In this document: piece by piece, positions 1 through 3,112 of the stretch
How the letters are laid out: every line of letters begins with the position of its first letter
Numbering within the stretch: the stretch's first letter is position 1
NCBI GenBank assembly: GCA_902569245.1
Contig: CACFTO010000001.1
Location: 12,066 to 76,065, forward strand
DNA length: 64,000 nucleotides
Direction: 5' to 3'
From: an uncultured Pelagibacteraceae bacterium
GTDB lineage: Bacteria > Pseudomonadota > Alphaproteobacteria > Pelagibacterales > Pelagibacteraceae
The notes under the pieces: model-generated
What the model was told of the DNA's origin: nothing
The model's input: only the letters and a program-made list of their open reading frames with translations
The model's database searches: none
Made by a program: the position numbers and the translations under genes

Positions 1-328
1 TGTCAACTTTTGCTGCAAGTACAAAATCGCTTTCGTGCAAACCATTTATTGCATGAGTTTGTATTTTGATTTTTGCATATCCCCAACCAAACCAAATATC
101 TGGGTGATGTCCTTCTTGTTCAGCAATCTCACCAACTTTATTAACAAAAGATTGGCTTTCTAAAAAATTGTTAAATTTATAACTTTTAACTATATAATAA
201 TCTTTATTGTTATCTGATACCACATTCCATCCATCAACTTTCTTAAGGTATTTATGGATTTCATCTAAATCAAAGCTAGGGATACCTCCTTCACAAGGTA
301 TACACTTTTTGTCTGCTAAATCACTCAT
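1..328 (-). CDS. phhB: Pterin-4-alpha-carbinolamine dehydratase (3' end runs off window)
   Basis: Manual translation from ATG at 328: MSDLADKKCIPCEGG...EIAEQEGHHPDIWFGWG...IQTHAINGLHESDFVLAAKVD; HHPD and THxxxGL motifs; absent from ORF track. Confidence 0.9.
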   Translation of the reverse strand, partial: MSDLADKKCIPCEGGIPSFDLDEIHKYLKKVDGWNVVSDNNKDYYIVKSYKFNNFLESQSFVNKVGEIAEQEGHHPDIWFGWGYAKIKIQTHAINGLHESDFVLAAKVD

Positions 329-1172
329 TTGGATTGTAACCTAAATCATTTAAGTCGTTTTGTAAATTTTTATTTAATTGAGTAAGGATATTTTTTGGTA
401 AAATTTTTTCCCATCTATTATTAAAACCAAGATTAAAAAATGGTTTTTTTTTTCCATTGCTAGAAATTACACTCTCTTCAAATCCTTCATTTTGTTCTTT
501 ATTCTTTAGGTTTGTAAAATTTGTCGATCTAATAGAATTAAGCAACTTTTTTTCGTCTATTTCTAATTTATTACGTTTAATACTATTAATAAACTTTATT
601 ACATTTTTAAACGTATCATATTTATTATTCTCCAAGTCCTCATATTTTATAAATAAAGTTTTAAATTCTGTTGTATTTTTCCAAGATTTATAATGAGTTG
701 ACCAAGACCCAAGGAAAGTAAAATTACTATAATCGTTGTTTAAAGACTTTTCCAATAAAGATGCATTCTCATCCATAATTTTATGGTATGCTTGGTCATA
801 ATTTAATGAATAATGATGAGTCAAAGAACTTACTATATTTCTAGGATCTCTTACAATATATATTGCTCCAAGAGTTTGCTGGTTAGTAGTAAATTTATTT
901 CCATTAAATTTGTCTAAAGTATTGTGAGTTTTAACAAAGTGGACTTTATTATTATTATTTATGAAAAATTGATTTTGATTAAAAATCCAATTCTGACTTG
1001 CCTCATCTTCTGAAAAAATATTTTTTTTTGTAAATTTTAAAGATGGAAACTGAAGAATATTTAAAAGTAAATCAAAATCGAATTTTCCTTTTTTAGAAAA
1101 GAAATATGAAGATATAAAAGATCTTAAATAAGTATTCCCACTTTTGGGATAAGATGCGATCCAAATAATCAT
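321..1172 (-). CDS. PAPS-dependent sulfotransferase (Sulfotransfer_1 type)
   Basis: MIIWIASYPKSGNT 5'-PSB loop, KTH, IVRDPRN 3'-PB motif; start moved to ATG 1172 because the longer ORF overlaps the tRNA. Confidence 0.88.
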   Translation of the reverse strand: MIIWIASYPKSGNTYLRSFISSYFFSKKGKFDFDLLLNILQFPSLKFTKKNIFSEDEASQNWIFNQNQFFINNNNKVHFVKTHNTLDKFNGNKFTTNQQTLGAIYIVRDPRNIVSSLTHHYSLNYDQAYHKIMDENASLLEKSLNNDYSNFTFLGSWSTHYKSWKNTTEFKTLFIKYEDLENNKYDTFKNVIKFINSIKRNKLEIDEKKLLNSIRSTNFTNLKNKEQNEGFEESVISSNGKKKPFFNLGFNNRWEKILPKNILTQLNKNLQNDLNDLGYNPNE

Positions 1173-1183
1173 ATTGATATTTA

Positions 1184-1258
1184 TGGAGCGGGCAATGGGA
1201 CTCGAACCCACGACCTTCTCGTTGGCAACGAGACGCTCTACCACTGAGCTATGCCCGC
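1184..1258 (-). tRNA. tRNA-Gly(GCC)
   Basis: Reverse complement GCGGGCATAGCTCAGTGGTAGAGCGTCTCGTTGCCAACGAGAAGGTCGTGGGTTCGAGTCCCATTGCCCGCTCCA folds as a cloverleaf, anticodon GCC, encoded CCA. Confidence 0.98.
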
Positions 1259-1300
1259 TTATTAAAAATCATTATAGATAGCGGTTTTTATAAATGCAAG
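1218..1300. repeat. 83-bp direct repeat copy 1 (tRNA-Gly 5' half plus promoter); att-like junction
   Basis: 80/83 identical to 2865-2947 by manual alignment. Confidence 0.95.
1271..1299 (-). promoter_or_regulatory. sigma70 promoter of tRNA-Gly
   Basis: TTGCAT-17 nt-TATAAT on minus strand just upstream of the tRNA 5' end. Confidence 0.85.
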
Positions 1301-1331
1301 TATTAGTTAAATTAGTAAAATTTATCACCAA

Positions 1332-1373
1332 CTGTGTCGTGAGTGTGTCGAGATTTTTTTAAAACTTTACATG
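1332..1373. repeat. Putative recombinase arm-type sites, tRNA-proximal end
   Basis: CTGTGTCG (1332) and GTGTGTCG (1343) 11 bp apart, then TTTACATG (1366); the same motifs recur at 2777-2825. Confidence 0.55.
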
Positions 1374-1384
1374 AAAGTTTATGT

Positions 1385-1402
1385 TGGGGGCTAACGCCCC
1401 CA
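1385..1402 (-). terminator. GC-rich hairpin downstream of cargo gene, probable terminator
   Basis: TGGGGGC-taac-GCCCCCA perfect 7-bp stem 17 nt after the stop; U-tract weak. Confidence 0.55.
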
Positions 1403-1419
1403 CAGGCTTAATTTAGTTA

Positions 1420-2670
1420 TTAATCTAAGCTATAAATTGTAACTGATTTTTCTTTGTCAACTTCATTAGCACTTATAAATAAGTTCCGTTGTGGAATAGC
1501 AACCAAACCTTCTGGTCCAATACCCGTTGGTAAAATAGCAACTAATTCTGGGTTTTTCAAATCGTTTGCTTTATAAACGCCGATAGCATTTGCTCTTTCA
1601 GCACCAACAAAGATATAACGTGTATCACCATATATTGCTACTTCAACTGACTCTGGTTCTACACCTTTTTTCTCTGCACGTTTTTCTGGCCAGTAACCTG
1701 CTGAAGCGAGTGCTCTTTCATATGACGAACCTGACTCGTATACCACCGAACCATTTTTATTGAAGATTGTCCATCCACGACTACCACCACGTTTCGCTTG
1801 ACCTGGTGCTTCATGTTTATAGTCACCTTCATTTGCAGTTGCAAAATGATCATCGTCAATCCACTTAACTGCGTCTGGTTCTCTACGAACATTCTCAATG
1901 GTATCAACCATCTTTAGTTCACCATCTTTTTTGTTATCAATACCTACTAATGTTACTAGTCCTGCATCAAACTCTGAAATTACTTTTCCACTTCGATCAA
2001 TAACCGCCATCCAGTTATTCTCTTGCATAGTAACAACTATTTCACCTAAATTATTGATATCAACAAACTCAGGCTCTGGATCGTTAGGAGCAATAGTTGA
2101 AAAACCAACTAAGTCCGCTTTAGTAACACTGTTATCTGCTAAATTAATAATTGCCACAAAACCCCCTGGAAGTTGTGGAATTTTTTCATCGTTGATATCT
2201 TCGTTACGTTCATTTTCAATAGCTACTGCCACAAAAGTTCCATCTGGACTAACTGCAACCGAGTCTGGCTGTCCACCTAGTTCTACTTTTGTAACTTCTT
2301 TTCCTGAGGCAAGATCAACAACTAATAAGTGACCACTTGGCTCTACATAGTTTGGAGAAGTATTAATACCTACAAATGCTTGTCCATTTTTGATTGCAAC
2401 ACTAGTTGGTTCACCACCTAAATTCATGTGGCCTAATGGTTTCGGATTTGCTGGATCAGTAATATCAATCATGCCTAATGCGTTTGCAGGGCTATCGCTA
2501 TATACCAGTTTCATGCCATCTGCTGTTGCCGCAATTATTTCTGCTGATGTTTCTTCTGCACTAGGGTTATTTGCTGGTGTTCCAAATTTCCCAATTTCTT
2601 TAAAGTCTGCATTTACTGTGCTAACAAATGCGGTTGAGGCCAGAAGGCCTGCTAAGATAAATTTTATCAT
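1420..2670 (-). CDS. Secreted beta-propeller protein, choice-of-anchor I / atypical alkaline phosphatase-like
   Basis: Signal peptide MIKFILAGLLASTAFVSTVNA; motifs GGQPDSVAVSPDG, AIENE, DPEPE, ATANEGD, KGVEPE, GPEGL; AAGGA SD before ATG 2670. Confidence 0.7.
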   Translation of the reverse strand: MIKFILAGLLASTAFVSTVNADFKEIGKFGTPANNPSAEETSAEIIAATADGMKLVYSDSPANALGMIDITDPANPKPLGHMNLGGEPTSVAIKNGQAFVGINTSPNYVEPSGHLLVVDLASGKEVTKVELGGQPDSVAVSPDGTFVAVAIENERNEDINDEKIPQLPGGFVAIINLADNSVTKADLVGFSTIAPNDPEPEFVDINNLGEIVVTMQENNWMAVIDRSGKVISEFDAGLVTLVGIDNKKDGELKMVDTIENVRREPDAVKWIDDDHFATANEGDYKHEAPGQAKRGGSRGWTIFNKNGSVVYESGSSYERALASAGYWPEKRAEKKGVEPESVEVAIYGDTRYIFVGAERANAIGVYKANDLKNPELVAILPTGIGPEGLVAIPQRNLFISANEVDKEKSVTIYSLD

Positions 2671-2712
2671 TATATATTCCTTTTTGTTTTTATGGAAAGA
2701 TATCAAAACAAG

Positions 2713-2741
2713 ATGAAAAATTTGTAACAGTTTAATTACAA
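2713..2741 (-). promoter_or_regulatory. Pho-box-like tandem repeats
   Basis: Minus strand TTGTAAT-n4-CTGTTAC-n4-TTTTCAT, exact 11-bp period, resembling the PhoB half-site CTGTCAT. Confidence 0.55.
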
Positions 2742-2776
2742 TTATATTTTATTCCACTCACCATAGTTTTTCTTTT

Positions 2777-2825
2777 CTGTGTCGAAGTGTGGCCGTCAGT
2801 GTGGCCGAAAACATTTACATGTCGA
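2777..2825. repeat. Putative recombinase arm-type sites, distal end
   Basis: CTGTGTCG (2777), AGTGTGGCCG x2 (2786, 2798), TTTACATGTCGA (2814). Confidence 0.55.
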
Positions 2826-2864
2826 ATAAGGATTGATTAGTCTTGCAAAAGGAACGTGGACTAC

Positions 2865-2947
2865 CTCGTTGGCAACGAGACGCTCTACCACTGAGCTATG
2901 CCCGCCTATTAAAAAACATTATAGATAGCGGTTTTTAGAAATGCAAG
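2865..2947. repeat. 83-bp direct repeat copy 2: truncated tRNA-Gly 5' half (2865-2905) plus intact promoter (2918-2946)
   Basis: 41/41 identity to tRNA nt 1-41, no T-arm or 3' acceptor strand; TTGCAT-17-TATAAT retained. Confidence 0.95.
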
Positions 2948-3112
2948 CAATATTAAATTTGAATAAATTTTTGATAATCTGTGTAACCTAGTGAATTTAT
3001 ACTTCTTAGAATTTATTTAAAACTAATTAAAATTTTAATTTTAACAATTTTGTGTTGCTGAAATATTAAGCCATTAATATGGATCTCAAAAAAAATATGA
3101 TAAATTCTCATA

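Follow-up and report, generated by a model that had tools for sequence, protein, structure and literature searches.

How SAR11, the most abundant bacterium of the ocean, gains the variable genes of its genomic islands is an open question; its genomes show almost no classical mobile elements. The tRNA-Gly(GCC) gene in a 64,000-nucleotide (nt) stretch from an uncultured Pelagibacteraceae bacterium (contig CACFTO010000001.1; the whole stretch is referred to hereafter as the window) raises the question in a narrower form. There a unit of 1647 bp, which carries one cargo gene but lacks a recombinase, lies between the complete tRNA gene and an orphan copy of its 5' half. How did such a unit reach the site, and can it still move? 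The original prediction took it for a non-autonomous, integrase-less cassette whose attachment site carries the tRNA 5' half and a promoter, and both the family to which the unit belongs and the other genomes that carry it support this view. We think it probable that the unit (1218-2864) is an integrase-deleted derivative of a Pelagibacter tRNA-Gly(GCC) element family and that it is still moving, most likely by means of a related integrase. Membership in the family and horizontal transfer as a unit are very probable on the comparisons described below. That an integrase moves the unit, in trans or within a co-integrate, is a reading towards which we lean only slightly.

The single tRNA gene that ARAGORN identified in the window is a functional tRNA-Gly(GCC) at 1184-1258 on the minus strand, with a cloverleaf fold of z = -2.8. 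A repeat search returned a two-copy direct repeat at 1218 and 2865 (spacing 1647 bp), and pairwise alignment showed that the copies (1218-1300 and 2865-2947) are 83 bp long with three mismatches, none within the 41 tRNA bases. Each copy holds tRNA nt 1-41 and a promoter, which was read directly as a -35 TTGCAT (1299-1294), a 17-nt spacer and a -10 TATAAT (1276-1271) that lies 12 nt before tRNA nt 1. Identity stops past tRNA nt 41, inside the palindrome CTCG-TTGCCAA-CGAG and one base short of the end of the anticodon stem; beyond the 83 bp, a less exact match extends upstream by about another 35 bp (120 nt at 86%). The arrangement on the tRNA strand is outer promoter, orphan tRNA nt 1-41, insert, inner promoter and complete tRNA, and no tRNA 3' half follows the distal orphan copy (2865-2947). 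The GC content of the unit is 35-43%, compared to 18-30% in the flanks. This anatomy is as had been predicted, down to the position of the mismatches. The unit contains a single open reading frame. No PF00589 match was found on the window contig, and the 1.05-Mb assembly has only two Phage_integrase matches, both on other contigs, so the absence of a recombinase from the unit and from the rest of the window was also confirmed. Neither of the two matches belongs to the element family: one is Xer-like (70 bits) and the other, of 551 amino acids (aa), has no NCBIfam match.

The source genome is fragmented (31 contigs, 75% complete), as would suit an assembly artefact of repeated tRNA sequence. 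However, the same layout is present in about 19 other independent single-cell assemblies, with a spacing of 1645-1648 bp (1689 bp in one copy), and in metagenome contigs, one of which (GOS contig L150; labels in L denote loci or contigs that were compared, labels in G genomes) covers the outer tRNA fragment and runs into the beginning of the cargo gene. The probability of an artefact is negligible. In a scan of bacteria and archaea with one genome per species, the junction was found in 24 genomes, all of them Pelagibacterales, and 18 of the 24 carry this cassette; G218 and the window genome bring the number of species-level carriers to about 20. An empty allele, which the prediction had called for, is the rule in relatives. 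The tRNA 5' half was seen in 121 of 150 genus representatives, and 116 of the 121 have a single copy, the state expected of an empty site.

Comparison of 19 carriers separated the cassette sharply from its surroundings. Median pairwise identity was 96.8% for the cassette versus 74% for the downstream flank, the upstream flank could be aligned in 12 of 171 pairs, and of the 107 pairs that could be compared, none had a flank matching the cassette in similarity. Six species pairs differed at 1-4 of 1606 positions within the cassette. Immediately outside it, 47-62 of the 100 nt that precede distal nt 1 differ in the same pairs, and of the 100 nt that come after the proximal tRNA, 38-65 differ in five of the six pairs and 13 in the sixth (L071/L069). 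The breakpoints in these relatives fall where they do in the window, past nt 41. Near-identical copies occur in at least 11 species, ten other species representatives encode a cargo protein with 100% identity, and the orphan 5' half is perfect in 18 of the 19 carriers; that of an older relic in G327 is decayed. The host tRNA 3' half behind the insert has a T-arm of type A in 12 carriers and of type B in 7; the type changes at least three times on the cassette tree, and in the two pairs with differing host T-arms the first differences appear at nt 49 of the proximal tRNA. The contrast between cassette and flank, the T-arm changes, the identical cargo and the intact orphan half therefore show recent, repeated horizontal transfer with limits inside the tRNA gene. 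Near-identical cassette contigs were recovered from four marine metagenomes of four studies (Logan contigs), with little cover of this genome's flanks; as evidence at the level of contigs, they agree with horizontal transfer. Three joints in metagenome contigs (1355-2858, 1351-2862 and 1289-2942) were considered as products of excision or deletion and rejected, as they are allelic arm and promoter variants that match both ends. The T-arm of tRNA-Gly(GCC) is dimorphic in the genus (GTGGG...CCCAT or GAGGG...CCCTT), and the GTGGG...CCCAT form is over-represented among carriers (12 of 19) and rare among the sampled empty sites.

These data bear on a simpler history, in which the unit is the immobile relic of a single ancient insertion that was inherited vertically under purifying selection. 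Such a relic needs no recombinase, and constraint on the cargo would explain why its protein is identical in many genomes. It would not explain why the non-coding part is equally conserved between species whose flanks cannot be aligned, why outer promoters and host T-arm types vary among carriers, why most relatives have an empty site, or why the orphan half has escaped decay in all but one of the carriers. We regard a relic as very improbable.

The 19 carriers also show which part of the locus is mobile. The inner promoter is near-identical in all of them, and roughly a dozen unrelated forms of the outer promoter occur. Given the constant inner promoter, the varying outer promoter and the varying T-arm, the inner promoter and nt 1-41 must travel with the insert, and the outer promoter and the tRNA 3' half belong to the host. 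In the window, near-identical cassettes being joined elsewhere to two host T-arm versions, the minus-strand tRNA gene is accordingly divided into a host-derived part (nt 42-75, 1184-1217) and a part supplied by the element (nt 1-41, 1218-1258). The proximal repeat (1218-1300, minus strand) is the attR side, with tRNA nt 1-41 and the element promoter (-10 at 1271-1276, -35 at 1294-1299). The distal repeat (2865-2947, minus strand) is the attL side, with the orphan tRNA nt 1-41 (2865-2905) and, from the alignment, the promoter that was resident there before (2906-2947). The claim that the repeat consists of a tRNA half plus a promoter thus holds for the window and fails as a general rule, the outer promoter being unrelated in most other carriers. 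On this comparison the 83-bp repeat is exceptional, owing its length to a chance likeness between the outer promoter and that of the element, and the part that stays constant is the 41 tRNA bases.

Is there an enzyme that uses this site? Tyrosine integrases of 316-335 aa (PF00589 with Int_N) start about 100-150 nt past an orphan tRNA-Gly 5' part in G188/G108/G087, G333, G395, L074, L080 and L090. The element of G188/G108/G087 is 5.2 kb long and carries cytochrome c, cupredoxin, DUF4396 and Rieske genes; those of G333 and G395 measure 8.4 kb and 6.1 kb. A junction scan of metagenomes returned 79 contigs, at least 33 of them with an integrase directly after the junction, six with terminal direct repeats and two with two integrase elements in tandem. 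In one of the tandem arrangements (L119), two different family integrase genes each follow their own tRNA-Gly junction, and L165 looks alike; these double elements suggest that accretion at tRNA-Gly is common. Integrase-adjacent DNA with the same core had been anticipated and is most complete in the IMG/VR contig L091, whose exact 123-nt terminal repeat implies a 5875-bp circle or concatemer. L091 is laid out as arm repeats, upstream region, tRNA-Gly nt 1-41, GTAGTCC, arm repeats and integrase. Its attachment site (attP) is intact, so that it shows directly that the family attP carries the tRNA 5' part. Further genes of L091 encode a helix-turn-helix protein, an AAA_25 replication ATPase and a small terminase subunit (Terminase_2), and L074 also encodes a primase-polymerase. 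Among viral contigs, a protein search with integrase P0002 gave no relative, and the DNA junction pattern then found L091. The related expectation of pelagiphage attP sites with the same core was not borne out in a curated phage collection: none of its phages has the repeat or the ends of the element, and the only matches were generic tRNA-Gly genes and cyanophage phoA.

Integrases of the broad family were present in 17 of 301 Pelagibacter species representatives searched, which contradicts the picture of a streamlined genome devoid of mobile elements. Related Pelagibacter integrases (L047-L064) adjoin 3' parts of tRNA-Met, tRNA-Asn, tRNA-Thr and tRNA-Leu, but 5' parts (nt 1-57) of another tRNA-Met; both orientations therefore occur in one Pelagibacter integrase family. 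In the complete, single-contig genome G087 (L043, L044), the complete tRNA and the integrase-linked orphan 5' part are in opposite orientation about 550 kb apart by the shorter way round the circle, and the complete tRNA there has an element-type upstream region. This layout suggests a large inversion or translocation through the element.

The cassette matches these integrase-bearing elements most closely at its left end, the side of the orphan tRNA, where core and P arm are common to integrase-bearing elements over 88-110 nt. The 88 nt past the orphan tRNA in the window (spacer and P arm) are identical to those of the integrase-bearing L074, L147, L158 and L169, and the left end of the commoner cassette version is almost identical to that of the integrase-bearing L092. 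The spacer (2808-2864, minus strand) starts with GTAGTCC and aligns without gaps to elements that keep tRNA nt 42-53 (G333) or nt 42-66 (G188). It is therefore the decayed relic of a longer tRNA fragment, nt 42-66, which fits a crossover upstream of nt 42. Next to it the P arm (2777-2807, minus strand) is a set of tandem arm-type repeats of the GGCCACACT variant. Past the P arm, a ribosome-binding-site-like stretch, an ATG and about six codons (2745-2776, minus strand) align with the integrase starts of L074, L080, L083 and L092, and a repeat resembling a Pho box and the cargo follow. The alignment is suggestive of a scar of a lost integrase gene. Independently truncated integrase genes of 129, 73, 67, 35 and about 10 codons are present in other contigs; the integrase has thus been lost repeatedly, and the most plausible reading of the cassette is as an outcome of one such loss. 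At the opposite end, the P' arm (1332-1352, minus strand, the inner right end) consists of two tandem CGACACA-type repeats by motif comparison, and the motif occurs only four times on that strand in the window, three of them within the two arms. The motifs of the two arms co-vary. In 24 of 25 integrase-bearing contigs, 8-mers are common to the P-arm window and the upstream window of the same element (mean 4.4, versus 1.6 with other elements), and the motif classes are distinct (CGACACA, TGGCACA, GGCCACAC, GGGACGCA and others), the P class equalling the P' class within one element.

The family attP is ordered as P' arm pair, promoter, tRNA nt 1-41 (the core, ending in the anticodon-arm palindrome), GTAGTCC spacer, P arm set and integrase gene. 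In the mechanism we propose, recombination in or near the anticodon loop would split the tRNA gene of the host, whose promoter and 5' half would become the orphan at the outer end. The promoter and 5' half of the element would join the host 3' half, so that a whole tRNA gene remains. The cassette, its integrase gene lost, retains the core with its promoter, an arm on each side and a single cargo gene. The integrase of a related satellite-like or cargo element might then act on it, alone or as part of a tandem co-integrate, and the cassette would move between species as a unit bounded inside the tRNA. Since the incoming DNA replaces the tRNA promoter and 5' half, each insertion would rewire the transcription of an essential tRNA gene. 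After insertion the former tRNA promoter also lies upstream of the adjacent gene, which is the integrase gene or, in this cassette, the cargo.

Several observations weigh against this mechanism for the cassette itself. The circle junction that the prediction proposed to look for, an attP-type join of the cassette's own promoter and 5' half to GTAGTCC such as an excised or tandem copy would have, gave no match in an exact contig scan of 241 million metagenome records. Five genomes with integrase-less cassettes at tRNA-Gly, one complete genome among them, hold no family integrase at that tRNA: none was found in G000, G251, G218 or G179 (the last 99% complete), and G211 carries only a 45%-identical integrase beside a tRNA-Met fragment. 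Among the loci fetched, no integrase-bearing contig has this cargo. The two arms in the window differ in variant (GGCCACACT versus CGACACACT), which could weaken recognition; such a difference would be expected if a tandem element of the L169 type had been deleted by recombination between arm repeats. The P' arm of the cassette is about 40 nt nearer the tRNA than in integrase-bearing elements and its promoter resembles the native Pelagibacter tRNA-Gly promoter, so the right end is no simple copy of a known attP. Finally, the exact limits of the unit would be expected equally from general recombination through the 41-bp tRNA repeat.

This last point, together with the lack of a family integrase in the carriers tested and of a circle junction, favors a route in which the cassette descends from such an element but spreads without an integrase, by circularization through the 41-83-bp repeats or by direct invasion, followed by RecA-dependent insertion into the recipient tRNA-Gly. 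SAR11 has high rates of homologous recombination. That short element repeats do recombine is seen in the metagenome contig L153, where P and P' arms are fused and the spacing is a cargo-less 193 bp. Against RecA-dependent insertion, two events on 41 bp would be inefficient, yet at least 11 species hold near-identical copies. Cassettes with unrelated cargos retain their arm repeats at both ends, but those in the old relic of G327 are decayed. The hybrid left end in the window, shared with an integrase-bearing element, points to past residence in tandem. We judge the RecA route unlikely; it is nevertheless a serious alternative, because insertion through a 41-bp repeat gives identical limits.

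Compared with a lambda-type attP, the locus has a core with inverted repeats flanking a short overlap (CTCG-TTGCCAA-CGAG, where the block of identity ends in each copy) and arm repeats on both sides that differ from the core (1332-1352 and 2777-2807); the related integrases carry Pfam Int_N, for which arm binding is predicted. Like integron cassettes, the unit is small, has no recombinase of its own and sits at one fixed site, as members that mostly carry one gene and stack into arrays. Unlike them, it has no attC hairpin, IntI or attI platform, its sites being of the lambda type (core and arm repeats) in a tRNA gene, and the element integrases score 20 bits against an integron-integrase cut-off of 265 (NCBIfam). 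A closer parallel is offered by the cis-mobilizable elements (CIMEs) of integrative and conjugative element families in Streptococcus thermophilus, which are reportedly islands flanked by att sites, devoid of recombination and transfer genes, and moved after tandem accretion with an integrase-bearing relative. The cassette is likewise flanked by att sites of an integrase-bearing family (core and P arm identical to L074 and L169) and has no recombination or transfer genes. Its spread across species, the tandem integrase elements at the site (L119, L165) and the hybrid left end are compatible with mobilization of this type; a junction of the excised cassette was not found in the scan described above. 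CIMEs differ in their recombinases, their Gram-positive hosts and their use of conjugation, and show no replacement of a tRNA 5' half or promoter.

The prediction had presented an attP that restores the 5' side of the tRNA as a departure from the norm. Restoration of the 5' side was indeed found here, but there is a precedent, for HTVC019P-type pelagiphages restore the 5' end of the SAR11 tRNA gene that they split (Zhao et al., 10.1101/410191). There too, a tyrosine integrase acts in the middle of the tRNA, and a partial 5' end beside the integrase on the incoming DNA completes the gene. Those phages are podoviruses of 35-45 kb at tRNA-Cys, tRNA-Leu and tRNA-Arg (10.1101/410191), whereas the cassette is 1.65 kb, uses tRNA-Gly and has neither integrase nor phage genes. 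In the phage collection the best matches to the element integrases, at about 33% identity, are from Acinetobacter and Pseudomonas phages, with Pelagibacter phages only among the weaker matches. Marine phage satellites (VEIMEs) have been reported integrated in Pelagibacter (Eppley et al. 2022, PMC9618062), and the integrase-bearing relatives L091 (5.9 kb, circular) and L074 fit their description. An integrase with replication and packaging-interference genes in 5-10 kb describes L091 (integrase, AAA_25, Terminase_2) and not the cassette. L091 comes from a viral-contig collection, which is no proof of packaging. The words tRNA and attP do not occur in the text of the VEIME paper.

Tycheposons target tRNA genes, exist in satellite-like and cargo forms, stack in tandem, leave degenerate remnants and carry nutrient cargo including phosphate genes (Hackl et al., 10.1101/2020.12.28.424599). 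The cassette has in common with them the insertion at a tRNA gene and the flanking partial tRNA copy. With its single open reading frame it lacks their hallmark recombinase and their replication and mobility genes, and the host and the integrase set are different. Tycheposon remnants are described as decayed debris rather than as a conserved integrase-less unit that is near-identical across species, and promoters go unmentioned in the preprint text (10.1101/2020.12.28.424599). In SAR11 itself, islands beside tRNAs were described by Molina-Pardines et al. (2025, PMC11796062), four with a partial tRNA repeat marking an inserted gene cassette, with no canonical mobile elements and one integrase; the passages concerned give no att anatomy, orientation, link to integrase-bearing relatives or evidence of cross-species transfer. 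The general logic is therefore already known from the 5'-end replacement by pelagiphages, the partial-tRNA cassettes of SAR11, VEIMEs and tycheposons. What this locus contributes is a reversed orientation at tRNA-Gly in which a tRNA promoter travels along, a map of the transferred unit to the nucleotide, att halves that are identical between members with and without an integrase, and a phosphorus-related cassette that has just swept across many species.

What does the cassette deliver? The cargo gene (1420-2670, minus strand; assigned from Pfam, NCBIfam, nucleotide matches and GC content) encodes a 416-aa beta-propeller of the choice-of-anchor I family (PF22494, E 2.7e-10; NCBIfam NF038117), predicted to be secreted. 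Its nucleotide identity to genes annotated as phoA (alkaline phosphatase) in the Synechococcus myophages Syn30, S-SM1 and S-SM2 is 66-68%, which hints at a marine gene pool common to phages, cyanobacteria and SAR11. Among solved structures, only weak beta-propeller repeat matches were found. The protein probably serves phosphorus scavenging. Upstream of the gene, a direct repeat TTGTAAT-N4-CTGTTAC (2722-2742, minus strand), read from the sequence, is predicted to function in the manner of a Pho box. This stretch is kept before another cargo in L130 and in L070, an integrase-less member with the same backbone whose cargo is a phosphonate ABC transporter and a methyltransferase, as if a constant regulatory module were retained while the gene is exchanged.

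Different cargos thus lie between the same ends, as the prediction had expected, and other integrase-less cassettes at tRNA-Gly extend the range: sulfotransferases (G327, L152), FkbM methyltransferases (L123, L146, L115), a PhyH dioxygenase (L146), a pilin-like protein (L155), an MmeI-like restriction-modification enzyme (L164), a DUF4379 protein (L112) and uncharacterized cargo (G179, L136). A cargo-less cassette at L153:52-320 has its two tRNA-Gly 5' halves 193 nt apart, and the fusion of its arm repeats into one set looks like a deletion between the arms. In the window the genes that flank the cassette (an FkbM methyltransferase, a tetratricopeptide repeat protein and sulfotransferases) are of the same kinds as cassette cargos, which fits island growth by such insertions.

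We tentatively suggest that SAR11 may run an integron-like, tRNA-anchored cassette economy, in which small integrase-less cassettes, each with a complete attP made up of the tRNA 5' half, a tRNA promoter of its own and arm repeats that serve as an address, are shuttled between species by the integrases of rare satellite-like elements, probably in helper phage capsids. If this is true, successive insertions at tRNA-Gly would account for the island next to it, with its sulfotransferase, methyltransferase, pilin, restriction and phosphorus-uptake genes. The locus offers a mechanism that can be tested: an att site in the anticodon arm of tRNA-Gly, candidate helper integrases with matching arms, and circular satellite-like relatives. 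Because the ends are short and known, the system can be studied in vitro and traced in metagenomes.

Some smaller features complete the map. A GC-rich hairpin after the cargo (1386-1401, minus strand; -16.2 kcal/mol, z = -3.3) is the likely transcript end. It was not flagged by a terminator scan because no T-run follows it, and the tRNA promoter was not flagged by a generic promoter scan because TTGCAT matches TTGACA at three of six positions; both calls rest on reading of the sequence and on conservation. Upstream of the outer promoter, alignment revealed a weak, decayed similarity to the P' arm and spacer (2948-2990, minus strand), which may be the trace of an older insertion. No convincing relic tRNA fragments or arm motifs were found further upstream of 2990 in the window, so this similarity is the sole sign of serial accretion there. 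On the other side, a sulfotransferase gene (321-1173, minus strand) begins 10 nt past the tRNA 3' end. This position has no sulfotransferase in the other genomes compared, where the tRNA is followed directly by a conserved 114-aa gene; the 3' side of the tRNA is therefore variable too.

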